Below, piece after piece: positions 9,051-56,290 of a stretch of DNA of 64,000 nucleotides. The position numbers and the translations under genes are program-made. The stretch is from contig OZ253462.1 of assembly GCA_965261395.1 (NCBI GenBank), forward strand, positions 2,528,001 to 2,592,000, given 5' to 3'. Below the pieces are notes generated by a model. It saw nothing but the letters and a program-made list of their open reading frames with translations, was not told where the DNA came from and searched no databases. Source of the DNA: Candidatus Latescibacterota bacterium. GTDB lineage: Bacteria > Latescibacterota > UBA2968 > UBA8231. Every line of letters begins with the position of its first letter. Positions within the stretch are counted from its first letter, which is position 1.

Positions 9051-9107
9051 AGTGTGATCTCTCGCATTCTCGTTGAGTGTTTGAGGACAGTTAGATCTTC
9101 CACATGG

Positions 9108-9863
9108 TCATTCACAGCGCAGCGCTTCCACTGGATCAATCCGACTCGTCCTGATGGCATGGTAGGCGACGCTCACCCAAGCGGCGACCAACGCGGCGGC
9201 GACCGCCACGACGAACGGAGCGGCACCAACCTCGGCGCGCGCGCTGAACTGCTCCATCCACCCAGCCATGCCCAAGTAGGCGAGGAACTCGATCTGCAGG
9301 TGCGACTGCTCGGGCAGGTCGCGCAGAATCCCGGTCACCTTCAGATCGAGATAATCCTTGAAGCGGATGACTTGCCCCATGGGATCGTCGTCGCCGAACA
9401 GCTTGCGCGCCGCAGACTCGGAGAGGAGGACGGTAAAAGGCTCGTCGAGCGCAGTGGCGGCGTCGCCAGCAACCAAGGGTAGGGTGAAGACTTTCAGAAT
9501 CTCCGGGTCGGCGAAGTAAAAGGCGTCCTCGTAGAAACGCTTCTCTCCGTGGCTGACGAGCGGCACTGGGTTATCCACGTTCAGCATGCGCACTACGGCT
9601 TCTACTTCGGTCGCCTCACGCTGAAGGCTGGTGCCGAGGACAGCGGGCGTCGTCAGACGAGCAGCTTTCTCGCCCTGGGTGACGACTCGATAGATGCGCT
9701 CGCCGTGTTCGTGAAACCGGTCGGTCTCCAGTTGGCCCAGAACCCAAATGGCCATGAGCATACAGCCCGCGAGCCCAACCGCTAAGCCGCCGACATTGGT
9801 CAGCGCGTAGAACCGGTGGCGGGTCAGATGGCGGGCGGCGATGTGCAGGTAGCTCTTGAACAT
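9108..9863 (-). pseudogene. MacB-type permease with a large in-frame internal deletion (251 aa)
   Basis: Normal N-terminus and periplasmic domain to QIEFLA, joined directly to the final TM region (YLGMAGWMEQF...DPVEALRCE). About 550 aa shorter than its paralogues. Confidence 0.85.
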
Positions 9864-9966
9864 GATCTACTCCTAGCGGAGACATCCACGCCGCGTGGAC
9901 TCACTCTCTGAAGGTATGAGATGCTTCGACTCCGTTTATCGCGTCTAACGTCGCGGTAGAGTACTT

Positions 9967-12363: not shown

Positions 12364-12543
12364 TTTCAGCTCCTTATAATATTCTCTTAGGTATGTTAGG
12401 GTTGGGTCGTTGAACAAAACTTTGCATGGTTGAACAATTTTCGTCGTCATGCCCGCGATTGTGAAGCGACGAGAATTTCAAGAACGCTTCTGAGCATGGT
12501 TAGTACCTTTCTTCCCGCTTTAAACGACTTGTAGGGAATCCCT

Positions 12544-29351: not shown

Positions 29352-31870
29352 CGTGGGACAGGCGCACGTATAAGTATCGTCCCAGAAAGTCGTAGGTACT
29401 GGCATCAGAAGTGGCGAGGAACCCGTTGTAGATCACCGCTGGTGGCTGATCGAGTAGGTTGTTGATGCCGACTCGGGACCGTTGGCTGACGGCAGCGTTT
29501 GCTCGTACTTAACGAGCAGATTGCTCTCGAACTGCGCCGAGACAATGCCAACGGGCGCATTCGCAACGTAGTTGAGTCCGATATCAAAGCCACTAGTTGC
29601 GGTTTGGCCAATGTTGTCGTTGGGGGACGCGATATAGGTAATCAGCTTGGTGGTCGGGTCGCGCACTACTTGGTCGCAGTTGGACGGCGAATCCTGCGAG
29701 TAGCAGTTGCTCAAAATGAGGCTGGCGGGCAACACGCCGATCTCATCCTCGATGGTGCTGGCATAGTAATCTACGGCAATATCAAATCCCTTTAGAAAGC
29801 GCGGCTGATACACCAATCCGGCGGTCAGCATGGTGGCCTTTTCCGGATCGAGATCGGTGCTGCCGCCCAACTTCGTTCGCAGTTGGGACTGGGAGTCCTC
29901 AAAATCGGCGGGGATGCCTTGCGCCGCGCAATGGCGCTTTTGTTGATCGGTCAACACGCGGGGATTGCCCCCTTCATCGACCACGCTGCAAGGATCGCTG
30001 ACGAGGGGGAAGGAATCGCTAGTGCCGAGGAAGAGTTCCGCGATGCTGGGGGCGCGAAAAGCATTGGAAGAGGTGGCGCGCACGGCCAGCCCTTGGGGGA
30101 GTTCGAGGCGAGTACCGAGTTCGTGGGTAAAGCCCGAGCCAAACGTATCGTAGTGGAAGGTGCGTCCGGCGGCGATTGCGCCGAGGCCCACGTCTCCTGC
30201 TTTGTACAGAGGTAGCTGGGCCTCCGCGTACAACGCCTTGACCGAGTACGCGCCGTCGGTGGGCGTCGCCTTACTGCCGGTGGTATTGCCCGACGCAGTC
30301 ATGGGGTCGGGAGATAGGCCCCAGCTTCCCAGCGCGAAGACAAACCGGCCGCCACGGCGAGCGGGCCGGCTGGCAAGGACGCGGCCTCCCCGGTCAGGTT
30401 CCACTGTAGAATCTGCTGCTGGGAATAGCCTCTGGCGACTCCAGTATATTGGATATAGCCCAGCATCTCCTCGGTGATGGTGCCGGGGCCGTGGAGAATA
30501 TCCAGCGCTACGCAGTCGCCCGTGCAATCCTCGTCTGGCCCCAGTGCCCGCTCGACATTGCTGCGGATAAAGCGGCCCTCGTTGATGTTGGTGCCCTCGC
30601 TGCGGCCGTAGGAAAAAGACAAGTCAGCGTCAAAGCTTCCGAGTCGGTGGTCCAACCCCAACACCATGCGGTAGGTATCGATATCCTGGAGGTAGTTGCG
30701 GTTGCCTGCTTCGACAAAGCGCCGGCGCACATCGATGAAATCGCGACCGAATTCGTTGTACCGGTTAGTAGCTGACAGCGCAATGCCTTCGCTAATGATA
30801 AACAGCGGCGTCGGGGCCAGCTTCTGATCGGATTGGCGATTGGTGTACGACACCTCGAAATACGTCTTTGCTGCCGCTGCTAGGGTATAGGAGCCGGCGA
30901 GGAAGGAGCTGTAGCGCGTCTGCGGAGTGTAGAGGTAGTTTTCTGGCTCGTAGTTGTATATATCGCCGCTTCCGTCCGAGGAGATCCCCGACCAGTTAAA
31001 GGGACGCCAGCCGATCTCCGGGTCGCGGTGGTAATCTCCGACGTTCTCGCCAGCCGCCTCCACGACCGCCTGCCAAGCTTCGTTCCCCTCGTCACCCGAG
31101 CGGTCGATAATGTGGCCTTCCGGGGTGGCCGAGCTGCCATTGTTGTTATAGGATCCGTCGTTCAGTTCCCAGTCGTAGGCCTTGTCCGACTCGCTAAAAC
31201 TCCGGTCGCCGGTCCAAGCCGGCCGCTGGTTGTGGTAGCCGGCTGAAAAGGCGATGTGGCCTTTTTCGCTTTGTAGGCCGGTGGTTACGCTGAGGTCCAA
31301 AACTTCCCCGTCGCCCGCGCCTGAAGTCCCCGCGTAATAGTCGATCTCTATTCCCTCTATCGCGGTCTTGGTGATGATGTTGACCACGCCGCCGATGGCG
31401 TCCGAGCCATATACCGCCGAGGCCCCATCTTTGAGCACCTCAACTCGCTCGATGACGGAGGCCGGAATGGCGTTCAGGTCAACGGATGAATTCGCGCCCG
31501 TCCCGCCGGGCACGAAGCGACGGCCATTGACCAACACGAGGGTGCGATGGGAACCGAGTCCGCGCAGGCTGACACGGGTAGAGCCGTCGCCGCCGTTGTT
31601 GGCTTGGGTGTTGATCGCATTGGACTGCACGGTGAGCGTTTGCAGCACGTCCCCAAGAGAAGCCAAACCCTGCGCCCTGATTTCCTCTGCTGAGAGGACG
31701 ACGATTGGCGCTGGCGCGAGCGTCTCCGCGCTTTTGATGCGGGAGCCGGTCACTGTGATCTCTTGGAGTTCGTATATCTTCGGTTCGTCCGGCTCTTCTT
31801 CTGCGAACGCGCCCATAGAACAGGCGCAGGCCGCGATTAAGGCTAGCAAAAATGCGTATCTCGCGCTCAT
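29344..31870 (-). pseudogene. TonB-dependent receptor, frameshifted and internally deleted
   Basis: ITVTGSRI TonB box and plug (ERVEVLKDGASAVYGSDAIGGVVNIIT) in ORF 30299..31870. Continues in another frame after ~30310 (PDPMTASG...). Terminal RVGINNLLDQPP...YDFLGRYLYVRLSHAR* lies in a further frame after ~29475. Confidence 0.85.
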
Positions 31871-33192: not shown

Positions 33193-34047
33193 TTATGGAG
33201 TAGCGGTCTCGAACAAGGCCAGCCAATCGTCCACGCTTTGGGCCACCGACTCGGGGTGAGCTTGGCTGCGGGCGATAAAGCCGGGGACGCCGTCGCGGCC
33301 GCTGGGTTGAGCCGGGTCGCTGTAGCGCAGGTCGAGGCTCCAGCGGATGTGGTCGGAGTGGTTGGGGATGGAGCGGTGGATGGTCTTGTGCTGGATGAGC
33401 AGCACGCCGCCGACTTTGACCGGGCAGCTAACTTGCTCGCCGGGGGGCAAGTACTGATCGGTGATGCCTTTGAAATTGGCCCCGGGTCCCAAGCCGTGCT
33501 CGTGGCCGATGAGCGGGGCGCGGTTGCTGCCGGCAATAACTTCCATGCAGCCGTTTTTAGGGGTGGCATCGACCAAGGGAATCCAAAAATTGACCATGAA
33601 GGTCTCTTCGGCGTCGGGCTGCAAATAGCCGAGGTCTTGATGCCAGGGCACCACAGTGGCGTCTTGGTTGGGCAATTTGGCGCGCAGGTTGAATTGCGGG
33701 TGCGCCAGTATTTCGGGACCGATCACGGATTCGACCATGTCGAGCAGCGCCGGTTGGGTCAGAATGGCGAACATGCCCTCGGTTTTGAGCTTGCCGTTGA
33801 CTTGACCCAACAGCGGGGAAGGGTCGGCCCACTGGGCGTGGATGTGGACCAAGCGCTTGGCAAAGGGTAGGTCCGCGTGCAGGTCGGACAGTTCGCCGGC
33901 AGCGTGGGCCTGCTCGGCGGCGGTATCGACAATGGCGTCGATTTCGGCGATGAGGAGGTCGAAGGCAGAGGGGTCGAGGACATCCTCTACTAGGAGGTAG
34001 CCTTGGGTGCGGTAGAAGTCGAGTTGGTCGGAGGTGAGGCCGCTCAT
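33193..34047 (-). CDS. Phytanoyl-CoA dioxygenase (PhyH) family 2OG-Fe(II) oxygenase
   Basis: FYRTQGYL, PWHQD, NGCMEVIAGS, IHRS..N.S...R. Confidence 0.9.
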   Translation of the reverse strand: MSGLTSDQLDFYRTQGYLLVEDVLDPSAFDLLIAEIDAIVDTAAEQAHAAGELSDLHADLPFAKRLVHIHAQWADPSPLLGQVNGKLKTEGMFAILTQPALLDMVESVIGPEILAHPQFNLRAKLPNQDATVVPWHQDLGYLQPDAEETFMVNFWIPLVDATPKNGCMEVIAGSNRAPLIGHEHGLGPGANFKGITDQYLPPGEQVSCPVKVGGVLLIQHKTIHRSIPNHSDHIRWSLDLRYSDPAQPSGRDGVPGFIARSQAHPESVAQSVDDWLALFETATP

Positions 34048-36823: not shown

Positions 36824-36871
36824 TATTATTCTTGAAATGGACCTCAGCGACCCAAGAAAGTGAGCCCTGCC

Positions 36872-37810
36872 ATGAAAACACAACGCTACCAACTCCGCAT
36901 CAGCGGTTTAAGAGAAGACAAAGGTCAAATCAAGATAGCGACTCTCCGGCGTGTTATGGACGCCCTTCTCGTGATAGCAGAGAGGACCACCCGCTTGCTC
37001 GCTACGGGCGCAGGTAGTGGGAGGGGAGCGAGGCCTCAGTGGCTGGACGCCACCATTGACTTCACGATAACTAGATTGAAATCCGGATCTACGATTTTTG
37101 ACATAGAGGCTCCCCAGCTTAGTGAGACTGCCTACGCACAATTTGTCCAAGAAGATTTATGGAGCAAGCAGCCCAGCCTAGACGAAACGGCGCTCGATCT
37201 GGTAGCTCAATCGATCAAAGAGACCCAGACCGACAATCCAATTGGAGACTATTTCGACAGTTCGGTTCTCGAAGCGATTCTCAAGTTCAGGCAAGCGGCT
37301 GGCGTTGCTGGTGTGCGCTATGAAATGATCCCTCAAGACACGGCGCATGGGCAATTCAAGCTGGACGACATTACTTGCACATACGCCAAAGAGCGATTGA
37401 ATGACATCCCGACTCCAAGGTCTTTTATCGTAAGTGGAAGGCTCGACGAGATCAAACATGGTAATGGTCGCTTTCGCCTTCTGGTGAGCGAGAAGTCAGC
37501 ACTCTTTGGACGGCTGGACGCGTCATTGGGCGTAGAGGCTTTGCGTCCTCTATGGGGTAAGCAGACCACCATTGAGGGAATGGTGCATTTCAAGGCCAAT
37601 GGGCAGCCGCGATTGATCGAGGCTCGCCGGATTAGTGCTCGACTGGAAAGTGATAGCATTTTCGAAGAAATGCCGTCAGTAGAAGTCCAAAGACCGCGTG
37701 TCCTTTTTTCGGTACAACGCAAACAAGTCAAAGGGTTCGACCCTATTGAGCTTGCGGGCGCATGGCCTGGCGATGAACCCATCGAGGATCTCCTAGCCCA
37801 ACTTGATTGA
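36872..37810 (+). CDS. Hypothetical protein, possibly antitoxin-like partner of the downstream PIN remnant
   Basis: Clean ~312-aa ORF; C-terminus ELAGAWPGDEPIEDLLAQLD resembles antitoxin tails; lower GC than flanks. Confidence 0.7.
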   Translation: MKTQRYQLRISGLREDKGQIKIATLRRVMDALLVIAERTTRLLATGAGSGRGARPQWLDATIDFTITRLKSGSTIFDIEAPQLSETAYAQFVQEDLWSKQPSLDETALDLVAQSIKETQTDNPIGDYFDSSVLEAILKFRQAAGVAGVRYEMIPQDTAHGQFKLDDITCTYAKERLNDIPTPRSFIVSGRLDEIKHGNGRFRLLVSEKSALFGRLDASLGVEALRPLWGKQTTIEGMVHFKANGQPRLIEARRISARLESDSIFEEMPSVEVQRPRVLFSVQRKQVKGFDPIELAGAWPGDEPIEDLLAQLD

Positions 37811-38047: not shown

Positions 38048-40033
38048 ATGCCTGACCACAGCTACTTCGCTAACCTGATCTGGCAGATCGCCGACCTGCT
38101 GCGCGGTCCCTACCGCCCGCCGCAGTACGAGCGCGTCATGCTGCCTATGACCGTGCTGCGGAGGTTCGACTGCGTGCTTGCTCCGAGCAAGCCCGAAGTC
38201 TTGGCCGAGTACAGCCGCTGGGGCGGGAGACTCGACGGCGAAGCGCTCGACGTTAGGCTGAACAGGGCTGCCGGTCAGCGCTTTCACAACCACTCGCCGC
38301 TCGATTTCGAGAAGCTCAAGGGCGATCCAGATAACATCGCCCGGCACCTCGTCAGTTACATCCAAGGCTTTTCGGCCAACGTGCGCCGCATCTTCGAGTA
38401 CTTCGAGTTTGAGACTGAGATCGAGAAGATGCAGGAGTCGAATATCCTCTACCTCGTCGTCTCAAAGTTCTGCGATGTAGATCTACACCCCGATAGAGTT
38501 CCGAACGAGCAAATGGGTCTTCTCTTCGAGAACCTCATCCGCCGCTTCAACGAGTTGGCGAACGAGACTGCAGGCGACCACTTCACGCCGCGCGAGGTCA
38601 TCCGGCTAATGGTGAGCATCCTCTTCATTCACGACGACGAACTGCTCGCCACGCCCGGCACCGTGCGTAAGCTCCTCGACCCCGCTTGTGGCACCGGCGG
38701 CATGTTGGCCGAGGCGCAAAATTACCTGCGAGATCTCCACGCCGCTGCCCGGCTCTACGTCTATGGGCAGGACTATAACAACCGCGCCTTTGCCACCGCA
38801 GCCTCCGACATGTTGATGAAGCAGGTTGATCACAACGGCGGCGGAGACAGCATCCGCTTCGGAGACAGCCTTACAGGGGATCAATTCGAGGGTGAGACCT
38901 TCGACTACTTCCTCACCAATCCGCCCTTCGGCGTGGACTGGAAGAGGCAGAAGAATGAGATCCAGAGGGAACACGACAAGCTCGGATTCGAGGGCCGCTT
39001 CGGCGCTGGACTCCCGCGAGTGAATGACGGCTCGCTGCTTTTCTTACAGCATATGACCCACAAGTTTGAGCCAGTACGCCCAGACGAGCACAAGCACGGC
39101 TCGCGCTTGGCCATCGTATTCAGTGGCTCGCCGCTCTTTACCGGCGGTGCTGGCTCCGGCGAGAGCGACATTCGCAAGTGGATCATCGAAAACGATTGGC
39201 TTGAAGCCATCATCGCCTTGCCGGAACAGATGTTCTACAACACCGGCATCGGCACCTACGTATGGATCGTCACCAACCGCAAAGAGAAGCGGCGGCAGGG
39301 GAAAATCCAGCTTCTTGATGCCCGCGACTTGTGGACCGCGGGCGGGAGTGAAGACAACAAGCGCAGCCTTGGCGATAAGCGCCGCCACATCGCCGCAGAG
39401 CAGATTGAGGAGATCGTGCAGCTATATGGCCGCTTTGAGGACGGCGAGCGCTCCAAGCTCTTCGACAACGCTGACTTCGGCTACACACGCGTGACCGTGG
39501 AGCAACCTCTGCGCTTGCGCTACCAGATGACCATAGAAGACAAGTCCCGCTTTCTCGATGCCTGCCCGTACCTGCTCGACGACGTGCAGGCCATCGACAA
39601 GGCGTTGGGACGCGAGCCGAAGTACGACTGGAATGCGACATGGGAGAGCATTGCCGATCTCCTGCATGAGCACCAATCGCGCTGGAAGAAGGTAGAACAG
39701 AGGCTCTTCCGAGATGTCTTCACCGAGAAGGATCCGCAAGCCGAGCGGGTCAGGAAAGATGGCCGGGAGAAAGGCTACGAGCCTGACACCGCGCTGCGCG
39801 ACTTCGAGAACGTGCCGCTTAAAGACAACATTGACGCCTACTTCGAGCGCGAGGTAGCACCCCACCTTCCCGACGCTTGGATGGACCGCGACAAGGACAA
39901 GGTCGGTTACGAGATCAACTTCAACCGCCATTTCTATAAGTACACGCCGCCGCGCCCGCTGGAAGAGATTGACGCAGATCTGAAGAAGGCGGAGAAAACG
40001 ATCTTGCGGCTGTTGAAGGAGGTGACGGAGTGA
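38048..40033 (+). CDS. hsdM: Type I R-M methyltransferase subunit (N6-adenine)
   Basis: IWQIADLLRG, GDHFTPREVI, LDPACGTGG, NPPF. Confidence 0.96.
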   Translation: MPDHSYFANLIWQIADLLRGPYRPPQYERVMLPMTVLRRFDCVLAPSKPEVLAEYSRWGGRLDGEALDVRLNRAAGQRFHNHSPLDFEKLKGDPDNIARHLVSYIQGFSANVRRIFEYFEFETEIEKMQESNILYLVVSKFCDVDLHPDRVPNEQMGLLFENLIRRFNELANETAGDHFTPREVIRLMVSILFIHDDELLATPGTVRKLLDPACGTGGMLAEAQNYLRDLHAAARLYVYGQDYNNRAFATAASDMLMKQVDHNGGGDSIRFGDSLTGDQFEGETFDYFLTNPPFGVDWKRQKNEIQREHDKLGFEGRFGAGLPRVNDGSLLFLQHMTHKFEPVRPDEHKHGSRLAIVFSGSPLFTGGAGSGESDIRKWIIENDWLEAIIALPEQMFYNTGIGTYVWIVTNRKEKRRQGKIQLLDARDLWTAGGSEDNKRSLGDKRRHIAAEQIEEIVQLYGRFEDGERSKLFDNADFGYTRVTVEQPLRLRYQMTIEDKSRFLDACPYLLDDVQAIDKALGREPKYDWNATWESIADLLHEHQSRWKKVEQRLFRDVFTEKDPQAERVRKDGREKGYEPDTALRDFENVPLKDNIDAYFEREVAPHLPDAWMDRDKDKVGYEINFNRHFYKYTPPRPLEEIDADLKKAEKTILRLLKEVTE

Positions 40034-41295
40034 CTAGACGGGTAGCATCCCTGTTCCCGGCCAAGCGTTTGAAACATGTCGTATCGCTGCGGCGGTCGCG
40101 CGTCGATGGAAATGAGGACGACAGGCCGTACGTCGGGCTAGAAAACATCGAGTCGTGGACCGGAAAACTTCTTGGTAACTCGGCGGCGACTGACGAGGCC
40201 CGTTCGGCCATTATGGTAGAAGGCACATCGCTTAGCAACACCTTTGAACCCGGTGATGTGCTCTTAGGAAAACTACGTCCGTATCTCGCAAAGGTCTGGG
40301 TCGCGGAGTTTCCGGGCCGGTCTACTACCGAACTCCTTGTCATGCATCCGGTGGAGATCGAGCCGCGCTTTCTTCGGTACGTTTGTCTTTGGCGTGACTT
40401 CGTCGATGCGGTAGACGCTTCGACGTTTGGCTCAAAGATGCCAAGGGCCGATTGGGACTTCATCGGGAACATGTCCGTTCCAATTCCAGAGTGGAGCAAG
40501 CAACGCGCCATCGCCGACTATCTCGACCGCGAGACGGCACGGCTGGATGCACTGGTAGGGGAAGAGGAACGGCTACTCGGACTGTTGGCCGAAAAGCGCA
40601 GTGCGCTCATCACCTGCGCCGTCACCCGTGGCCTCAACCCAAACGTCCCGCTCCGCGACTCCGGCATTCCTTGGCTTGGCGAAATTCCAGCGCATTGGGA
40701 AACTGAACGCGCAAGATGGTTGTTCAGGGAACGCGATGAACGTTCCGATACGGGAGAAGAAGATCTCCTCACTGTGTCGCACCTCACTGGCGTGACTCTT
40801 CGTTCAGAGAAGGAAGTCAACATGTTCGAGGCGGCGACAAAAGAGGGATACAAAATCTGCCTCTCAGGCGATCTCGTAATCAATACGATGTGGGCATGGA
40901 TGGGTGCGATGGGTGTGTCGTCCTTAGACGGTATCGTTAGTCCGGCCTATAACGTCTATGAGCCTAGAGCGCGTCTTGATCCGAGTTATGTCGATGCCTT
41001 GGTGCGTTTGCCAGCGTTCGCTCAAGAGGTAACGCGATACTCAAAGGGTGTATGGTCATCCCGGTTGCGCCTCTATCCAGAAGGCTTCTTCGCGGTCTCA
41101 CTCCCTGTACCCCCGCTCAGCGAGCAGCGCGAGATCGTTGCCCACATAGCGAATGAAACATGCAAGTTAGACGGGCTGCGCGACGCGACGAAAAGGACCA
41201 CGGTGTTGCTCAAAGAGCGTCGAGCAGCGCTCATCTCAGCGGCAGTTACAGGTCAGATCAACATGGAGCAAGTGGCATGGAAATCACCTCGCTGA
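40030..41295 (+). CDS. hsdS: Type I R-M specificity subunit
   Basis: Two TRDs with conserved repeats PIPEWSKQRAIADYLD and PVPPLSEQREIVAHI; DSGIPWLGEIPAHW; ALISAAVTGQI. Confidence 0.95.
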   Translation: MTRRVASLFPAKRLKHVVSLRRSRVDGNEDDRPYVGLENIESWTGKLLGNSAATDEARSAIMVEGTSLSNTFEPGDVLLGKLRPYLAKVWVAEFPGRSTTELLVMHPVEIEPRFLRYVCLWRDFVDAVDASTFGSKMPRADWDFIGNMSVPIPEWSKQRAIADYLDRETARLDALVGEEERLLGLLAEKRSALITCAVTRGLNPNVPLRDSGIPWLGEIPAHWETERARWLFRERDERSDTGEEDLLTVSHLTGVTLRSEKEVNMFEAATKEGYKICLSGDLVINTMWAWMGAMGVSSLDGIVSPAYNVYEPRARLDPSYVDALVRLPAFAQEVTRYSKGVWSSRLRLYPEGFFAVSLPVPPLSEQREIVAHIANETCKLDGLRDATKRTTVLLKERRAALISAAVTGQINMEQVAWKSPR

Positions 41296-42605
41296 AACTC
41301 GCCAACATCCGTTCAATTGAGACGGCTGAGTTTCGATTCCAGCCGGGATTCAACTTGATCGCCGGAGTGAACGGTGTCGGGAAGAGTACCGTTTTGGATG
41401 CCTTGCGCTTCTGTCTATCTCAGATTCTCACCTTGACGACCCAGTCTCGCGCCAAGGCGCTATCCTTTGACAAAAGAGACATACGTAGTGGCTTCCCTCT
41501 CCTAGATGCAGAACTATCGTTGACCATTGGTGGTGAAAATCTCCGTTTCACGCGACGCCAGTGGAGGGAGGAGTTCGCTGTGGATGACGACGAAAATCTC
41601 AAGAAGCTTCGACGGAAGATTCTGGAGTCAGAACGGCTGCGTGACCGGGCGCGCAATCTTCTTCGTGAACTTGAGGCGTCTCACGGGGTTCATGACTCTA
41701 ATTCCTTCGTGCCATCAGAGGCTCGCTTCCTGATCGCCGCCCGCATCGCTGAGGTAGCTCCCAACTGCGTCTTCTTCTCCCCCAATCGGTCCGTGATCTC
41801 TTCTGCTAGTACAGCCAAGTCGAGAGCAGCGGGAGGTAAGGCCGCGGCCTACGCTGAGGCCCTTGTTCCGCGACCGATGTACGTCGCTCAATTTGCCCAC
41901 TGGATGCGAGTGCAGGAGGCTCTTGCCAAGGAACAGAACACAGCAGAACGACACCTACAGGCGCTGCGATCGGCGGTCTACGAATTCCTGCCAACTTATG
42001 AGAACCTTCGTCCGGCTGATGAGGCTGATAAAAAATCATCGTACCTGATGATAAACCAGGGCAGGATTGAGCTTGACGTAGAACAGTTGTCGGACGGCGA
42101 GCGAGGCGTGTTAGCCTTGGTCCTCGACCTCGCTCGACGGCTATCCCAAGCAAATCCATCACTCGATAATCCACTGAGCGAAGGTCATGCGGTCGTCCTG
42201 ATCGACGAAATTGACCTGCATCTGCACCCGAAGTGGCAGCGGCAGATCGTCCACAACCTGACCACCACTTTCCCGAAATGCCAGTTCATCGCGACGACTC
42301 ACTCACCGCAGGTCGTGGCGTCCGTCGAGCCCGATCAGGTTCACCTTTTGGCTCCTGTTGGAATCATCCATCCGGACCGCAGCCTTGGGATGGATTCAAA
42401 CTGGATCCTACGCCACCTCATGGAGGCCGATGACCGACCCGAGGCTGCTATGGCAGCCATTCAATCTGTTGAAAGCTTGATTGAGGAAGGAACCTTCGAG
42501 GAAGCGCACGCCGCGATCTCAGAGGCTAGGAAGAACGGGCTTGATCTACCAGAGTGGTCCGTTCTTGAAACGCGCATAGCTCGACTGGAGATTTTGGCCG
42601 AATGA
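41277..42605 (+). CDS. PtuA-like ABC/AAA ATPase (Septu/retron-effector type)
   Basis: GVNGVGKS, LSDGE, VLIDEIDLHLHPKWQ, TTHSPQ. Confidence 0.88.
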   Translation: MEITSLKLANIRSIETAEFRFQPGFNLIAGVNGVGKSTVLDALRFCLSQILTLTTQSRAKALSFDKRDIRSGFPLLDAELSLTIGGENLRFTRRQWREEFAVDDDENLKKLRRKILESERLRDRARNLLRELEASHGVHDSNSFVPSEARFLIAARIAEVAPNCVFFSPNRSVISSASTAKSRAAGGKAAAYAEALVPRPMYVAQFAHWMRVQEALAKEQNTAERHLQALRSAVYEFLPTYENLRPADEADKKSSYLMINQGRIELDVEQLSDGERGVLALVLDLARRLSQANPSLDNPLSEGHAVVLIDEIDLHLHPKWQRQIVHNLTTTFPKCQFIATTHSPQVVASVEPDQVHLLAPVGIIHPDRSLGMDSNWILRHLMEADDRPEAAMAAIQSVESLIEEGTFEEAHAAISEARKNGLDLPEWSVLETRIARLEILAE

Positions 42606-43312
42606 AGTACATCCAGAAGACCGGATGCCCGCACTCTTATTCCGAGTGGTGCGCTGCAGTTGCGGGAACGAATAAGTCTGATTGGCGTGAGGTGCCTTCG
42701 GCCCAGAAGGAGCTAATATTGGCGGCTATGATTGCAGATCAAGGCGGGTTGTGTGCCTATACGATGCGTCGAATCTACAATAATTCATCGCATGTGGAGC
42801 ATATCAAGCCACAGAGTCGCTGCCGGCAGGACCTGCGTGGGTCTGACTTGGACTACACCAATTTGGTCGCGTGTTTCCCACAACACGGTATGAAGGCACC
42901 GTATCGCTATGGCGCACAATTTAAGGGTAATTGGTGGGAGAACGATGGCACCGAATTCGTGTCTCCGCTTCAGCCTGCTTGCGAACAGGTCTTTCGATTC
43001 AAGCTTGATGGTGAGATTGAGGCAATCGACAATCGAACCGAAGCCAGAACCACGATTGACGTCCTCGGTCTCGATCACAGGAGTCTTACCGAGGATCGAA
43101 AGCGCGTCATTGAGGAGTTCATCTACGGGCGGACGAGGGATAACCCAATATCTTATACCGCCGCGCAGCGTGCACGAGACAAGATTTGCGATCGTAACGG
43201 GAATAGTCGCTTCCACGAGTTCTGCGTTGCAATACGAGCAGCTCTAGAAGAGCATATGGCAGCCCTCACGAAACTCCGTCAGCGCAGGAGATACGCGCGG
43301 AGGAACAGATAA
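42602..43312 (+). CDS. PtuB-like HNH endonuclease (TIGR02646-like)
   Basis: [13 protein letters not shown]...HVEHIKPQS...LDYTNLVAC; ATGA coupling to the ATPase. Confidence 0.85.
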
Positions 43313-43313
43313 C

Positions 43314-46300
43314 TTGCCGAGTGACGACAGGCATTCCGAAGCCGCCTTCGAGACCGTCATCGAAGCGCACCTACTCCAGAACGGGTACGTCTCTGTTGCT
43401 GGAGACGGCTTCGACCGCGACCGCGCGATCTTCCCCGATACCATCCTCGCGTTCATCCGCGAAACCCAGCCCGTAGAATGGGCCAAGCTAGAAGCGCTCC
43501 ACGGCGACCAAACCGGCGAGCAGATTCTCACGGACCTGTGCAAGTGGATGGACGCCAACGGCTCGCTCGCAACCCTGCGCCACGGTTTCAAGTGCTATGG
43601 GCGGATGCTCCACGCGGCGTTCTTCAAGGCAGCCCACGAACTGAACCCAGAGCTCGAAGCCCGCTACGCAGCTAACCGACTCGGACTCACCCGCCAGCTC
43701 CGTTTCTCCCCTCAGTCGGAGAAATCGCTCGACGTAACCCTAAGCCTGAACGGCATCCCCATCGCCACGGTGGAGCTCAAAAACCCACTCACCGGGCAAA
43801 CGGTAGAGGATGCGATCCACCAGTACCGGCACGACCGCGACGCACGCGAGCCGATCTTTGAGTTCAAACGCCGCACGCTCGTCCATTTCGCCGTCGATAC
43901 TGAATGCGTGCGTATGACCACGCGCCTAGCCGGCGACGCGACCTACTTCCTGCCCTTCGACAAGGGATGTGAAGGCGGTGCCGGGAATCCGCACGCTCCG
44001 GCAGGCCGTAGCTACCGGACGGCCTACCTTTGGGAGGAAGTACTCGCCCGGGACAGCCTGCTCGATGTGCTCGCCCGGTTCATCCACTTACAGACCGAAG
44101 AGAAGCGCGACGATCGTGGCCGCAAGGTGAAGGCCGAAACGATGATCTTCCCGCGCTACCACCAGCTCGATGCCGTCCGGCTGCTGGTGCAGAAGGCTCG
44201 CTGCGAGGGCGTCGGCAACAACTACCTCATTGAGCATTCGGCGGGCAGCGGCAAAAGCAACACGATAGGCTGGCTCGCGCACCGCATTGCTTCCTTGCAC
44301 AACGAGGCAAACGAGCGCGTCTTCGATAGCGTGATCGTGGTGACCGATCGCGTCGTGCTGGACCAGCAACTGCAAGACACGATCTACCAGTTCGAGCACA
44401 AGCTCGGCGTCGTGCAGAAGATCGACGAGCGTTCCCGACAGCTTGCCGAGGCTCTGGAGAACGCCGTCCCAATTATCATCACCACGCTACAGAAGTTCCC
44501 CTTTGTGTCGCGGCAGTTACTCAAGATGGCCGAAGAGCAAGGCGTTGAGGGGACAGGCGTACTTCCTACCCGACGCTGCGCCGTCATCATAGACGAAGCG
44601 CACAGCTCGCAGGGAGGAGAGACGGCGACGGATCTCAAGGAGGTCCTCGGAGGTAAAGAACTGCTGGAAGAGGCTCGGAAACGTGCGGAGGAGGAAGGCC
44701 GTGAGGACCAGGAGGAACTGTTTCGCAGCATGGCCAAGCGCGGCCGGCAGGCGAACCTGAGTTTCTTCGCCTTCACAGCCACGCCCAAACACAAGACGCT
44801 TGCCGTGTTCGGCCGAGACGGAGAGCCGGGCCATCGCTACACAATGCGGCAGGCAATCGAGGAAGGATTCATTCTCGACGTGCTCAAGCACTACACCACG
44901 TACTCGACCTACTTCAAACTGCTTAAGGCGTGCCAGGATGATCCAAACGTCGAGCGGAAGAAAGCAGCGCTGGCGCTGGCGCGCTTTCTGCGCCTGCACC
45001 CCCACAACATCGCGCAGAAGACCGAAGTGATGGTCGAGCACTTCCACGCCGTCACGCGCCACAAGATCGGTGGTCGCGCCAAAGCGATGGTCGTCACCAG
45101 CTCCCGGCTGGAAGCGGTGCGATACAAGCAGAGCTTTGATCGTTACATCCAAAAGAAGCAATACGCAATCAAAACACTAGTAGCCTTCTCGGGAGAAGTT
45201 CGAGACGACCAGCTTCCGAACGAGTCTTACACCGAGGAGAAGATGAACCTAGGCATCCGGGAGAAGGAGCTTCCGGAGAAGTTCGCGACCCCAGAGTATC
45301 AGGTGCTGCTCGTCGCGGAGAAATACCAGACCGGGTTCGATCAGCCGCTCCTACACACGATGTACGTGGACAAGCGGCTCGCCGGCATCCAAGCAGTCCA
45401 GACGCTCTCCCGCCTGAACCGCACCCACCGGCTCAAGGAGGACACTTTCGTTCTCGACTTTGTAAACGACCCTGAAGAAATCCGCGAGGCATTTAAGGTC
45501 TATTACGAAGGGGCAGAGATGGGAGCGGAGGTCGATCCCGCCCGAATGTACGCGGTCAAAGGGGAACTCGACGCGGCCGGGATCTATCTCGATGAAGAAG
45601 TTGAGCGGTTCTGTGAAGTTTACTTCAAGCCAAAACAGCGTCAGAGCGTCCAAGATCACCAAGCGATGCACGCCGCGCTCGGTCCTGCGGTGTCGCGCTT
45701 TAGAGCCCTGCAGAAAGATGACGAGGACGAAGCAGAACTCTGGCGCGGAAAGGTCCAAGCCTTTCGCAATCTCTACGGCTTCCTGAGCCAAGTCATCCCG
45801 TACCAGGATTCGGACCTTGAACGCCTGTACGTATTCCTGCGTCATCTGGCGGCAAAGCTACCACGGCGGCAGAGCGGTCCCGCCTATCAGTTCGATGACG
45901 AGGTGCGGCTTGAGTACTACCGCCTACAGAAGATCAGTGAAGGCTCGATCTCCCTCGCGGGGGGTGACGCACACGTCCTGGATGGGCCGACCGAAGTTGG
46001 CAGCGGCGCTGTACATGAAGAGTCGGTGCCGCTTTCGCAGCTCATTGACGTTGTCAACGAACGCTTCGGTACCGACTTCAATCAGGCCGACCAGCTCTTT
46101 TTCGATCAGATCGTCGAGGCGGCCATGAGCGACGATGGACTGCGCCAAGCAGCCGCAGTGAACCCAGAGGACAAGTTCGAGTTGGTGTTCAGGAATCTTC
46201 TGGAACGACTCTTCGTTGAGCGCATGGACCAGAACGAGGAGATTTTCGTCCGCTACATGAACGACCAGCCGTTCCAACAGTTGGTGAGCGAGTGGCTGGC

Positions 46301-46871
46301 GTCTCAGGCGTACCAGCGACTCCGAGATGGGGATGAGGTCTCAGCCACCACTCAACTTGACGCGGCCCAGTCTCCTACTTTGCGCATCGTCGCCCCCAAG
46401 CCCGACGAGCGTTACGTCACCTGCGTGCCGCTCGTGCCGCTTGCTATCGCGGCCGGCGAGTTCGGCAATCCTCAGAACGTGGCAGCCGAGGAGGACTGGG
46501 AGTGGGTCGAGGTGGATTCTGCACACCGCTTGCGACCGGGGATGTTCGTCGCACAGATCGTGGGCCGCTCAATGGAACCCGCGGTCCCCGACGGAGCACA
46601 TGGTTTATTCCGCGCCCCCGTAGAGGGCACACGCCAAGGTAAGACGGTATTGGTTCAACTTCAAGACGCTATCGACCCCGAGACCGGGGCGAGGTACACC
46701 CTCAAGCGATACGAGAGTAAGAAGATCCAAGACGGTGACTCATGGCAGCACGCCAAGATCACACTGAAGCCGACCAATCCCGAGTTCGAGCCCATCGTCC
46801 TCACGTGCGCCGACGAGGGCGAGGTGGCAGTTGTGGCGGAACTGGTGGAGGTAATCGCTGCCAATGCCTGA
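43314..46871 (+). CDS. hsdR: Type I R-M restriction subunit with C-terminal S24 (LexA-like) peptidase domain
   Basis: D...[12 protein letters not shown] nuclease, [25 protein letters not shown]. Extra tail [11 protein letters not shown]...GRSMEP...YTLKR...[11 protein letters not shown]. Confidence 0.95.
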
Positions 46872-46962
46872 CGCGATGCTCCTTGTTGTCCTTCGTCTCA
46901 CCTTCTGCATACTTCAGTGCATCGCGCAACCCGTCTATAATCTCGCCGCCGATCTCACTCAT
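46872..46962 (-). pseudogene. N-terminal stub of an HTH antitoxin/regulator (HigA2-like)
   Basis: GGAGGAG RBS, then [31 protein letters not shown] running into antisense hsdR. Confidence 0.5.
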
Positions 46963-47013
46963 GCTCTCCTCCATCGAATGCTTTCAATCTGACCGCGCCA
47001 CCCGCCCAAGCAA

Positions 47014-47925
47014 TCAGCGCGCATACCCATCCGGATTGTCCCGCCGCCAATTGGGCTGATAGCCTTCCTTGGCGTCAAAGCCATACGACGGCCCGATCTG
47101 GTTTGCAGACCGCCAAGGCCAAGCCTGGCCGCCGATGATGCGGAACTGATCGCCCTTACCACAGAGCCAGTAGAACATGTGGGCGTAGTATCGCGCCGTG
47201 CCGTGCCCGCCGTAATACGCGCTCTGGAAATCAAAATCTTCCTCGACGATCCAATCGCGCTGGGGAGGTGCCGTGCGCCAGTAATTGTATTTGAGCATCC
47301 GGCGCAGACCCTTGGCAGTGGACTTGCCGCGGCGGTGCATGATGCTCTGATGGTGAATCCCAATGGTGCCGGCCGGGCCGTCGCAAAACACGCCCCCTTC
47401 TTCGTTGTCGCGGCGACCAGGTTGGATGTGCGAGCCAGGCACCAACTCGGTCGGCCCCAGCTCCACGGGCGTGTCTTGGGGAAAGTAGAAGACCTCCAAA
47501 AAGCGTAGTTCCGGGCCATAGATGTGGTCGGCGTCTTGGTGCCAGCCTTGGGGTTCCATTGGGCATTCGACCCGGTGGTGGCTGGCTACGATCGGCAGGC
47601 CGATGTTGGGACCTAAAAGCGAGCGCATGGCACCGGCGAACTGGGGATTGAGCAGGACGTGCTCGATGAACCAATCCTCCAAGAAGATGGAACTCGGCTC
47701 GTGGGTAAAGCGGATGCGGTCGAGGTCGGCCTCGGTCAGGCCGGTGGGGATGTAGCTCGGGTTGGCTGGAATATCGCCATCGAGCCAAGCACAAGTGCGT
47801 TGGTTGATCTCGTCGGACACGACGCCTTTGAGCAAGAGATGGCCCTCGCGGCAGAATTCGAGGACTTGGGAATCAGTGAGCGTCGGCTCGCAGTCAAAGG
47901 TGCGTCGGCATGGGTTGTAGTGCAT
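47014..47925 (-). CDS. PhyH-family 2OG-Fe(II) oxygenase
   Basis: FCREGHL, GWHQD, GPTELVPGSH, MHRR. Confidence 0.85.
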   Translation of the reverse strand: MHYNPCRRTFDCEPTLTDSQVLEFCREGHLLLKGVVSDEINQRTCAWLDGDIPANPSYIPTGLTEADLDRIRFTHEPSSIFLEDWFIEHVLLNPQFAGAMRSLLGPNIGLPIVASHHRVECPMEPQGWHQDADHIYGPELRFLEVFYFPQDTPVELGPTELVPGSHIQPGRRDNEEGGVFCDGPAGTIGIHHQSIMHRRGKSTAKGLRRMLKYNYWRTAPPQRDWIVEEDFDFQSAYYGGHGTARYYAHMFYWLCGKGDQFRIIGGQAWPWRSANQIGPSYGFDAKEGYQPNWRRDNPDGYAR

Positions 47926-51079: not shown

Positions 51080-51814
51080 ATGACCAAAGAGGATGCCGTC
51101 GCCCATATCGACGAATACGGGTACGCCGTACTCAAAGGGGCGTTGACTGCGGATCAGGCCAACGCCCTGCGCGACCGCTCGGCTGAGCTAGTTGCCGCAG
51201 AAAGGGCGGCCAGCGGGGAGCACGTCTACCTCGACGGCCGCGCGCAGCGAGTGTGGAACCTAGTCAACAAGGGTCGCATTTACGAGGAGATGATCCAGCT
51301 CCCACAGGTACTCGCGCTCCAGGAGTACCTGCTGGGCGACAACTGCATCTTGAGCAGTTTCACCGTCAATCTCATCGGCCCGGGTGCGCCAGCCGGCCGC
51401 CTGCACATCGACTTTCCACTCGGCAGCTTTCCCCAGCCGCCGCCACCGATCCCCCTCTGCGCCAATACCATCTACGTGCTCGACGACTTCGCGCCTGAAA
51501 ACGGGGCCACGCAGATTGTGCCGGGCAGCTACAAGCGCGGGTACGCCCCCGACCCGGAAAAAGAGTACGACGACGTCATCCAGCTAGACGTCCACAAAGG
51601 CGATATCGTCGTCTTCCACGGTGCGACGTGGCACGGTAGCGGGGCCAATGGCACCCAGCAGGAGCGGATGATCCTGTTGGGGTTTTTCTGTCGCTCGTTT
51701 ATGAAGCCGCAACAGGACCAGTTCAAGCTAGCGCGCCCCGAGGTCGTCGCGCGGGCGACGCCGAGCCTAAAGCGATTGATGGGCTTCGAATCGCAGTCGG
51801 GGATGCGGACCTAG
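51080..51814 (+). CDS. PhyH-family 2OG-Fe(II) oxygenase
   Basis: LHID, NGATQIVPGS, WHGSGAN..QQER. Confidence 0.9.
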   Translation: MTKEDAVAHIDEYGYAVLKGALTADQANALRDRSAELVAAERAASGEHVYLDGRAQRVWNLVNKGRIYEEMIQLPQVLALQEYLLGDNCILSSFTVNLIGPGAPAGRLHIDFPLGSFPQPPPPIPLCANTIYVLDDFAPENGATQIVPGSYKRGYAPDPEKEYDDVIQLDVHKGDIVVFHGATWHGSGANGTQQERMILLGFFCRSFMKPQQDQFKLARPEVVARATPSLKRLMGFESQSGMRT

Positions 51815-55468: not shown

Positions 55469-56290
55469 GTGAACGAAATCGAAACCTTTGAATTCGATCG
55501 CCAGGGCTACATCGTCATTGAGAAGCTGCTGAACGAGACCCAAGTGGCCGCGCTGGCCGAGGCCGTGGATGAGCTAGAAGAACACTCGCTCGCGCATGTC
55601 ACCCAACCACCGCGCAAGCAAAGCGGCTGGGGAGCCAACTACCACGCCAATCCCGAGCGCGGCTATCACGCCAACGGCGAGCGGGCCGAGGGCAAGACCC
55701 TGATGGTCGAAGACTTCTGGAACGCCAACCCGGCCTTTGACGTTCTGCTCGACCACCCGCCGACGATGGACTATATCCACGGCATCGTCAAACAGCGGCC
55801 GACGATCAACAACTCCGAGATCCGCATCCGCTATCAAGGCAACTCCACCGGCTGCCACGGCGGCACCGTCTCGGCCAATCAGAAGTACCGCTACAGCTAC
55901 ACCGAGCACGGCATCGACTGCATGATGGTGCGGATGGTCTATTTCATCCACGATTGCACCAACGAACAGGGGGCCTTTTGCGTGGTGCCGGGGACGCACA
56001 AGACCAACCTGCCCTCGCCCCACAGCAACGACCCGGACGAAGACCCCGACATGATCGGCCTAGAGGTCAAGGCCGGAGACGCGATCCTCTTCACCGAAAA
56101 CTTGCGCCACGGCGGCCTCACCAACCGCTCTGAGCAGACGCGCAAGACTCTACACGTGGGCTACGGGCCGCATTGGATGATGTCGCAAAACATCGCCACC
56201 ATGGACGAAAAGCAGCACATCACCCCGGAGACCCTCAGTCGCTTGACCAAGGCGCAACGGGATTTATTCCGGGCCTATCCACCCGCCTAA
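55469..56290 (+). CDS. PhyH-family oxygenase with HxG instead of HxD
   Basis: FDRQGYIV, GCHGG, GAFCVVPGTHK, LRHGG..N.S...R. Confidence 0.85.
   Translation: MNEIETFEFDRQGYIVIEKLLNETQVAALAEAVDELEEHSLAHVTQPPRKQSGWGANYHANPERGYHANGERAEGKTLMVEDFWNANPAFDVLLDHPPTMDYIHGIVKQRPTINNSEIRIRYQGNSTGCHGGTVSANQKYRYSYTEHGIDCMMVRMVYFIHDCTNEQGAFCVVPGTHKTNLPSPHSNDPDEDPDMIGLEVKAGDAILFTENLRHGGLTNRSEQTRKTLHVGYGPHWMMSQNIATMDEKQHITPETLSRLTKAQRDLFRAYPPA

Follow-up and report, generated by a model that had tools for sequence, protein, structure and literature searches.

A predicted LexA-like S24 autopeptidase module at the C terminus of HsdR in a Type I restriction operon of Candidatus Latescibacterota

The window analysed here is a stretch of 64,000 nucleotides (nt) from a Candidatus Latescibacterota bacterium (contig OZ253462.1 of assembly GCA_965261395.1, positions 2,528,001 to 2,592,000; window positions are counted from its first letter). 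Among the open reading frames (ORFs) of its plus strand is a tightly packed five-gene operon in the order hsdM, hsdS, ptuA-like, ptuB-like and hsdR. The last gene encodes the R subunit of a Type I restriction system, HsdR, whose final 163 residues form a predicted self-cleaving domain of the LexA type. A preliminary description of this DNA, made from the sequence alone, had proposed a fusion of HsdR to an intact LexA-like S24 domain at 46380..46871, and a profile search of the PDB and structure prediction with AlphaFold2 and Foldseek bear it out. The boundaries are also correct, as nt 46380 is the first letter of the L1023 codon, at which the homologues begin to be conserved, and nt 46871 closes the stop codon. 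The gene and its parts are listed here, with lengths in amino acids (aa) and model confidence as the predicted local distance difference test (pLDDT).

43314..46871, + strand: hsdR-S24 fusion gene, 1185 aa plus stop, TTG start; a single uninterrupted frame (PADLOC REase_I, E=3e-37)
43314..46325, + strand: HsdR core, aa 1-1004, with nuclease, superfamily 2 (SF2) motor and helical/C-terminal region (Pfam; PADLOC REase_I)
46326..46379, + strand: linker, aa 1005-1022, poorly conserved (variable, gappy alignment columns; pLDDT 56-66)
46380..46868, + strand: predicted LexA-like S24 autopeptidase module, aa 1023-1185, 163 aa (Pfam, profile, AlphaFold2/Foldseek, ESM Atlas)
46440..46454, + strand: L1043-A-I-A-A1047, candidate Ala-Ala degron and would-be new C terminus of HsdR
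46452..46457, + strand: predicted scissile bond Ala1047-Gly1048 (near-invariant A-G)
46569..46571, + strand: predicted nucleophile Ser1086, in GRSMEP (near-invariant Ser)
46704..46706, + strand: predicted general base Lys1131, in TLKR (near-invariant Lys)

The core has the composition of a Type I HsdR, with an HSDR_N nuclease (aa 119-207), an SF2 motor of the SWI2_SNF2/ResIII kind (aa 280-524) and domain 3 (T1R_D3, aa 656-710), and both hsdM and hsdS lie in the same operon. Its score against the NCBIfam hsdR subfamily model is 199.6, below the cut-off of 284.55. The Peptidase_S24 domain follows at aa 1045-1175. The three motifs singled out in the preliminary description are all present and stand in the order found in LexA: IAAGEF at aa 1045-1050 (nt 46446-46463), GRSMEP at aa 1084-1089 (nt 46563-46580) and TLKR at aa 1129-1132 (nt 46698-46709).

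Several comparisons bear on the identity of this tail. Against Pfam Peptidase_S24 (PF00717) the window copy scores 21.5 bits (E=1.9e-4), slightly below the curated cut-off of 23.3, and against NCBIfam lexA it gives E=0.015. When the 181-aa tail alone was compared with the PDB by phmmer, only chance-level matches were obtained (E 0.75-0.98); a profile of 45 tail sequences returned 21 PDB sequences at E<=1, every one of them LexA, UmuD or lambda cI. The AlphaFold2 model of the domain, built on the same 45-sequence alignment, has a pLDDT of 87.4 and a predicted template modelling score of 0.81, with pLDDT falling below 50 at domain residues 9-12. In a Foldseek search of the PDB this model gave 32 matches at E<=1e-3, the top ones all LexA, lambda cI and UmuD (best 1JHC, E=1.2e-5); type I signal peptidases, the class that follows them, are reached only at E>0.03. 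The clusters nearest to the tail in the ESM Atlas are all Peptidase_S24, and no PADLOC model matches it. By predicted fold and by motifs the HsdR tail is a member of the S24 family of LexA, UmuD and cI, and self-cleavage is predicted for it.

The resemblance to LexA (1JHC, 3JSP and 8TRG; Foldseek E=1.2e-5 to 1e-4) includes the arrangement of the active site as well as the fold. In both proteins an Ala-Ala|Gly site lies N-terminal to a Ser/Lys dyad (A84, S119 and K156 in LexA; PMC9926225). The spacing is similar, with 39 residues from the site to Ser as against 35 in LexA and 45 from Ser to Lys as against 37, and the HsdR tail keeps a Phe eight residues before Ser and a hydrophobic residue three before Lys. 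The predicted N-terminal product, which would end in Ala-Ala, may be compared with the LexA fragment that is degraded by ClpXP and is reported to carry latent ClpX signals (PMC10584840). Identity to LexA is about 20%, and the partner domain is a 1000-aa restriction motor-nuclease rather than a winged-helix DNA-binding domain. The loop of acidic residues that precedes the Lys strand is extended, and an Arg stands four residues before Lys. There is also an additional conserved stretch on the N-terminal side (aa 1023-1042), which the model packs against the domain with high confidence. UmuD (1AY9/8GMT) and lambda cI (1F39/8GMU) are likewise fold matches, with template modelling scores of 0.68-0.73, normalised to target, for 1AY9/8GMT, and the aromatic residue three before Lys in the HsdR tail family has counterparts in F94 of UmuD and F189 of cI (PMC9926225). 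These two proteins are a polymerase subunit and a repressor, and neither is an immune nuclease.

The fusion recurs widely. Among 3132 candidate proteins in the size range 651-2074 aa, a search with the tail matched 1397 at E<=1e-3, and the 120 matches listed have tail identities of 64-94%. According to precomputed Pfam annotation 101 of these 120 are HsdR-type proteins, 18 are of the Type ISP type (Type_ISP_C plus N6_Mtase) and one is a 2014-aa DEAD + MZB helicase; PF00717 itself is precomputed for 109 of them, and among 87 relatives scanned it scored above its cut-off in 79 and at E<=1e-3 in 83. An exhaustive phmmer search of 1.84 billion cluster representatives (50%-identity clusters) yielded 1801 at E<=1e-3, 1023 at E<=1e-10 and 144 at E<=1e-30. 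In species-representative genomes a pattern taken from an 11-sequence tail alignment matched at least 599 times, and at least 532 of these places were confirmed by tblastn; the locus-level counts given below refer to the best 80 of these at least 532 loci (L001-L080). Fusions of the same length are present in complete chromosomes of many phyla. Such numbers dispose of the concern that the fusion might be peculiar to this one assembly.

The residues on which self-cleavage would depend are almost invariant in these relatives. The counts come from an unselected hmmsearch alignment and are given for the 120 listed homologues and then for the cluster representatives, the latter over non-gap rows. 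Ala1046 is Ala in 120/120 and 124/127, Ala1047 in 120/120 and 125/127; Gly1048 is retained in 117/120, the other three having Ser, and in 123/127. Ser1086 is conserved in 120/120 and 141/142, and Lys1131 in 120/120 and 140/143. Site, Ser and Lys are kept in all 80 loci (76 by alignment, 4 by tblastn alignments), so that the lack of conservation that the preliminary description had named as a possible refutation is not found. L1043 (L39 of the domain) is Leu in each of the 120 listed homologues, and the family consensus before the cut is L-[K/A/R]-[A/V/I]-A-A. Because a pure scaffold would need neither the A-A-G site nor the Ser and Lys, this conservation argues that catalysis and the cleavage site are under selection, and that cleavage itself is selected.

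The best 80 loci fall in 14 named phyla and derive from metagenome-assembled genomes (MAGs) or uncultured-isolate assemblies, with a single exception, Corallococcus sp. RDP092CA. The closest of them, L001, lies in a Candidatus Latescibacterota MAG; its tail is 94% identical, and its island and downstream flank are syntenic with the window (nucleotide identity 86-94%). In most of 59 of the 80 loci the HsdR core is 78-96% identical to its homologues, and HsdM is 72-95% identical in most of the 80, in each case across many phyla. This high similarity of HsdR core and HsdM between phyla points to recent horizontal spread of this Type I family. Within the same proteins identity is lower in the tail (59-94%) than in the core. 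When 72,556 plasmids were searched with the tail by tblastn, a single match of 42% identity was obtained, in a Halomonas replicon at a place with no annotated feature, and the same search of 50,697 phage records gave none.

Some copies of the gene are altered. In a sister Latescibacterota genome (L002, 5594-10649) hsdR matches the window in two blocks, 43330-44749 and 44743-46989, between which lies a stretch of about 1.4 kb with no match (locus 7013-8418). The longest tail-carrying ORF there is 741 aa, and this hsdR appears to be interrupted by an insertion. In five proteins of 648-702 aa (P0007-P0010 and P0122) HSDR_N and the start of the motor are joined directly to an 85-88%-identical S24 tail. 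These may be internally deleted variants or products of assembly.

The tail is found on many enzymes besides HsdR. Of 150 listed cluster representatives, the 87 with 240 aa or more were scanned with Pfam (the 63 shorter ones were left out), and the following partners were recognised.

Type ISP: 11/87
HsdR-type: 6/87, three of them of the HindI-like T1RH C-terminal family
Schlafen group-3-type helicase: 6/87
DEAD/MZB helicase: 5/87, one with an MTES_1575 nuclease
HNH_4: 5/87
Other ResIII/Helicase_C: 3/87
MmeI-like: 2/87
AlbA_2: 2/87
PLD nuclease: 2/87
McrBC: 1/87
LlaJI: 1/87
RE_endonuc: 1/87
XRE-type helix-turn-helix (HTH; classic repressors): 4/87
No recognised partner, many of them fragment-like: 38/87

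A nuclease, helicase or restriction–modification partner is recognisable in 45 of the 87, in about 12 classes. The S24 domain lies no more than 25 aa from the C terminus in 115/117, 73/76 and 119/129 complete domains of three sets. In multi-subunit Type I systems the tail is seen on the R subunit only, and N6_Mtase occurs together with it only in the single-chain Type ISP and MmeI enzymes. The HTH-S24 repressors P0165, P0179, P0253 and P0257 share 45-53% identity and the same motifs with the HsdR S24 domain; they differ in having an XRE-type HTH as N-terminal partner and are placed in a deeper, long-branched part of the tree described below. Since the same tail is carried by Type ISP, MmeI, helicase, PLD, HNH, McrBC, LlaJI and Schlafen-like enzymes as well as by HTH repressors, it is a portable, mobile C-terminal module of DNA-targeting defence enzymes, within a subfamily that also includes ordinary repressors.

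A quick maximum-likelihood tree was computed for 90 tails, comprising all partner-labelled rows with at most 30 gaps and 25 randomly drawn HsdR rows from the 120-sequence set. A single tight clade (59 rows; Shimodaira–Hasegawa-like approximate likelihood ratio support 97) takes in the HsdR and Type ISP tails together with three from DEAD/MZB helicases and one from a PLD nuclease, and the remaining partners lie on longer, deeper branches. The partner labels change 24 times on this tree as against a minimum of 13, and at least one attachment event per partner class is required; repeated swaps between HsdR and Type ISP are not forced by the well-supported branches alone. Independent attachment to HsdR is shown at the level of sequence by L026 and L036, because their HsdR cores are divergent (39% and 25% identical to that of the window) while their tails remain 64-65% identical. 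One 287-aa representative, P0211, carries two S24 domains in tandem.

The other four genes of the operon are the following.

38048..40033, + strand: hsdM, Type I methyltransferase, 661 aa (Pfam HsdM_N + N6_Mtase; PADLOC MTase_I PDLC03029, E=7e-258)
40030..41295, + strand: hsdS, Type I specificity subunit, 421 aa (PADLOC Specificity_I, E=1e-81; Pfam Methylase_S weak)
41160..42605, + strand: Septu PtuA-like ATPase of the ABC/SMC type, ORF of 481 aa (PADLOC PtuA PDLC00271, E=1.9e-116; Pfam AAA_21)
42602..43312, + strand: Septu PtuB-like HNH nuclease, 236 aa (PADLOC PtuB, E=3.6e-55; TIGR02646, 78.7 bits, cut-off 52.15)

The start of hsdS overlaps the stop of hsdM by 4 nt, ptuA and ptuB also overlap by 4 nt, and a gap of 1 nt separates the ptuB stop from the hsdR-S24 start. 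The true start of ptuA is probably near nt 41277, because the PADLOC models align only from residue 40. PADLOC recognises the neighbouring PtuA ATPase and PtuB HNH genes that define Septu; against NCBIfam PtuA the PtuA-like protein scores 239 bits, below the 500-bit cut-off, and PtuA and PtuB score under the cut-offs of the NCBIfam retron-Ec78 equivalogs, no retron having been looked for. The ATPase-HNH pair mentioned in the preliminary description as adjacent is thus present, and its position can be corrected: it lies upstream of hsdR and within the operon, in the slot that follows hsdS. In related loci hsdM-hsdS and hsdR are retained while the cargo of this slot between hsdS and hsdR (window 41160-43312) varies over 2-4 kb, and the slot looks like a cargo hot-spot within the Type I operon. 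In Corallococcus (L079, 4038-6971) it holds PtuA, PtuB and an additional PADLOC candidate gene, PDC-S05; the hsdR-S24 orthologue of this locus is the ORF 6968-10519.

The operon is flanked upstream by aspS and an ORF of 316 aa, and downstream by a convergent PhyH gene and malate synthase G. The 316-aa ORF (36860-37810), directly upstream of hsdM, has no Pfam or PADLOC match; a homologue of 69-71% nucleotide identity stands directly downstream of hsdR in two other Latescibacterota loci (L017, 10634-11049; L020, 10646-11061), and the ORF may travel with the restriction island.

Work on known systems suggests what such a tail could do. S24 proteins cut themselves at an Ala/Cys-Gly bond by means of a Ser/Lys dyad, and filaments of RecA on single-stranded DNA (RecA*) stimulate the reaction, in that they hold the cleavage-site region in the active site. 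The features of LexA that bind RecA are a pocket for the RecA L2 loop (F111, L113 and V153), an acidic patch (D150-E152) and contacts of the cleavage-site region (PMC9926225). Cleavage of LexA is reported to expose latent ClpX recognition motifs and to lead to degradation by ClpXP (PMC10584840). A screen in Escherichia coli defined the consensus [L/F/Y/W]-[L/A/R]-L-A-A for C-terminal ClpXP degrons, in which the final two Ala are crucial and Leu, Ala or Arg in front of them promotes degradation (PMC10862746). Restriction alleviation of EcoKI consists in proteolysis of HsdR by ClpXP and accompanies survival of damage and safe transfer to new hosts (PMC11109961, PMC12707154), in agreement with the preliminary description, which had named this precedent.

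The determinants of RecA* binding were counted in 215 sequences preselected for the motif G.SM.P, with offsets taken from Ser and Lys. Phe is found eight residues N-terminal of Ser in 215/215, and an aromatic residue three before Lys in 204/215 (Tyr in 187, Phe in 17). In the acidic loop, which is longer than that of LexA, D1121 is kept in 211/215, and the position of E1123 holds Glu in 176 and Asp in 27. As the determinants are partly present, responsiveness of the tail to RecA* is plausible, not secure. The would-be C terminus of HsdR, ...P-L-A-I-A-A, resembles the E. coli degron consensus and might be recognised by ClpXP.

The favoured reading, to which a probability of roughly 0.45 is assigned, is that RecA*-triggered self-cleavage of the tail lowers restriction and so provides HsdR with built-in restriction alleviation. 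The last 163 residues would then be a working LexA-type self-cleaving module. When the DNA of the cell is damaged or broken, for instance when repair or recombination, or recent arrival in a new host, leaves unmethylated sites open to self-restriction, RecA* would form, the module would dock in the filament groove in the manner of LexA, and Ser1086 and Lys1131 would cleave Ala1047-Gly1048 and sever it from HsdR. The cut would lower restriction, as an HsdR ending in ...P-L-A-I-A-A, a terminus like those of ssrA and the LexA N-terminal fragment, could be degraded by a ClpXP-type protease. Any S24-mediated pairing of HsdR would also be lost, and modification by HsdM and HsdS would go on meanwhile. 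The net effect would be a negative-feedback brake on autoimmunity, and a self-contained C-terminal cassette of this kind could be attached to any DNA-cutting defence enzyme. A brake that uses universal host factors would suit this Type I family, because the similarity of its HsdR core across phyla indicates that it often enters naive hosts. The SOS-coupled switch of the preliminary description is in this sense plausible, with off favoured over on; the cleavage, its RecA* trigger and the resulting loss of restriction are each inferred from conserved motifs.

Several observations weigh against a RecA*-triggered off-switch. In 158 of the 215 sequences the residue four before Lys is Arg, where LexA has its acidic patch, and because of this Arg and the longer loop the docking of the tail on RecA* may differ or be absent. 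A LexA-like protein that acts without RecA exists, namely IrvR (PMC7101444). In the AlphaFold2 model the cleavage-site stretch is a helix of lower confidence (domain residues 41-50, mean pLDDT 66) that is not confidently docked in the active site. The degron rules are those of E. coli, and the third residue from the would-be end, as read from the aligned tails, is often beta-branched or Ala, not Leu. According to PMC11109961, plasmid-induced restriction alleviation in E. coli is independent of LexA cleavage, so that restriction alleviation as it is known cannot be regarded simply as part of the SOS response. The tail is also present on nucleases that act independently of modification or are Type IV-like (McrBC, PLD, HNH), for which the need to protect unmethylated self DNA is less obvious.

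The same conserved self-cleavage machinery would be needed if the switch worked in the opposite direction, the tail keeping the enzyme latent until RecA*, formed during phage replication or after damage, removed it and so activated a second-line or abortive nuclease. A licensing signal of this kind would be sensible for those tailed enzymes that have no obvious methylation-based self-protection, such as the PLD, HNH, McrBC and Schlafen-like helicase proteins. One tail of 160 aa would, however, need to hold in check some 12 enzyme classes that are structurally unrelated, and specific inhibitory contacts are hardly portable. The HsdR core of the window has the full usual set of Type I domains, and Type I HsdR proteins that lack a tail are active. 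Moreover, to activate a methylation-guided enzyme at a time when repair yields unmethylated sites would be self-destructive. Activation by cleavage is accordingly judged unlikely; the off-switch is favoured because unrelated enzymes could all acquire a mechanism based on a degron or on pairing, whereas a specific autoinhibitory contact cannot be transferred in this way. A module that works without RecA, by constitutive self-processing, in response to another cue (pH, a phage protein or a partner), or mainly for pairing or as a scaffold with incidental cleavage, is doubtful too, though slightly more probable. Cleavage by Type I and Type ISP enzymes requires two motors to meet, which speaks for a role in pairing. 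LexA-type C-terminal domains do dimerise (PMC10584840), IrvR provides a precedent for LexA-like action free of RecA (PMC7101444), and the position of the acidic patch is not conserved, with Arg four before Lys. A two-copy complex prediction of the tail scored 0.00 and is evidence neither for nor against dimerisation. The near-invariant Ala-Ala-Gly, Ser and Lys point instead to selected cleavage, and the residues of the pocket for RecA L2 (Phe eight before Ser, aromatic three before Lys) are conserved.

The preliminary description had also considered that cleavage of HsdR-S24 might communicate with the ATPase-HNH pair between hsdS and hsdR. The tight coupling of the five genes, with their 4-nt overlaps and 1-nt gap, would fit such signalling, as would the presence of a PtuA-like gene upstream of the S24-fused gene in 23 of the 80 loci, including the cultured Corallococcus, which shares the order hsdM-hsdS-ptuA-ptuB-(PDC-S05)-hsdR. 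As a general feature the idea is not supported: PtuB-like genes accompany only 9 of the 80 loci, 57 loci give no PtuA match and 71 no PtuB match (tblastn, E<=1e-5, 10 kb upstream), the slot holds other cargo elsewhere, such as PDC-S05 in L079, and the same tail is attached to Type ISP, MmeI, helicase and other non-Type I enzymes. Signalling to Septu must be regarded as very improbable, although a link confined to operons of this gene order is conceivable. That the tail is a decaying relic or an artefact of assembly with no function is scarcely credible; the window copy does score slightly below the Pfam cut-off (21.5 against 23.3 bits), but same-length fusions stand in complete chromosomes of many phyla, and the catalytic and site residues kept in 80/80 loci contradict decay.

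If the off-switch is extended from HsdR to the whole family, the tail might be a portable RecA*-gated self-destruct tag, an autoprotease combined with a latent Ala-Ala degron, on a dozen immune-enzyme classes in at least 14 phyla. This wider proposal can be offered only tentatively. If true, the nuclease would be destroyed while methylation catches up after self-DNA breaks that load RecA, and the safe establishment of promiscuously transferred restriction systems in naive hosts would be explained through universal host factors.

The outcome proposed for HsdR-S24 is the same as that of the ClpXP-dependent alleviation known for Type IA and IB enzymes such as EcoKI, in that HsdR is removed by proteolysis and modification continues, which spares the chromosome after damage and in a new host (PMC11109961, PMC12707154). 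The HsdR of EcoKI has no S24 domain, however, and ClpX there recognises the translocating complex on unmodified DNA, LexA cleavage not being needed (PMC11109961); in HsdR-S24 the sensing would fall to the tail of the enzyme itself. The S24 family and Type I HsdR are each known, and what appears to be new is the combination of this self-cleavage family with a restriction enzyme. Database pipelines tag the domain already, through Pfam tags and names from the Joint Genome Institute such as 'predicted helicase/SOS-response transcriptional repressor LexA'. No paper on restriction or defence enzymes with a fused S24 domain came up in a full-text literature search, which did not extend to subscription journals or to closed supplements, and a 2025 review of restriction–modification biology (270,000 characters) contains no occurrence of LexA, S24 or peptidase.

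Only in a few E. coli systems, where ClpXP recognises a stalled complex, is it understood how a cell is spared by its own restriction enzymes after damage or when they reach a new host. An enzyme-borne sensor of the LexA type, if real, would be a second, general and portable answer to restriction autoimmunity. It would link the RecA damage signal directly and post-translationally to immune nucleases and would extend the paradigm of S24 self-cleavage from repressors and UmuD to enzymes. The S24 module could also serve in engineering as a damage-responsive off-switch for proteins.

Other features of the window lie outside the restriction operon. Four PhyH-type (phytanoyl-CoA dioxygenase family) paralogues occur within 23 kb, at 33193-34047 (-), 47014-47925 (-), 51080-51814 (+) and 55469-56290 (+), accompanied by amidohydrolases, a short-chain dehydrogenase and malate synthase G. 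A TonB-dependent receptor at 29433-31870 (-) is split into overlapping ORFs for the Plug (30299-31870) and the beta-barrel (29433-30527), which may reflect a frameshift or a sequencing error. Three tandem permease genes of the MacB/FtsX type, encoding 802-827 aa, occupy 6642-15018 (-) and are followed by more ORFs of comparable length in the same orientation. The GC fraction dips to 0.477 at 10001-12000, compared with about 0.60 elsewhere in the window.

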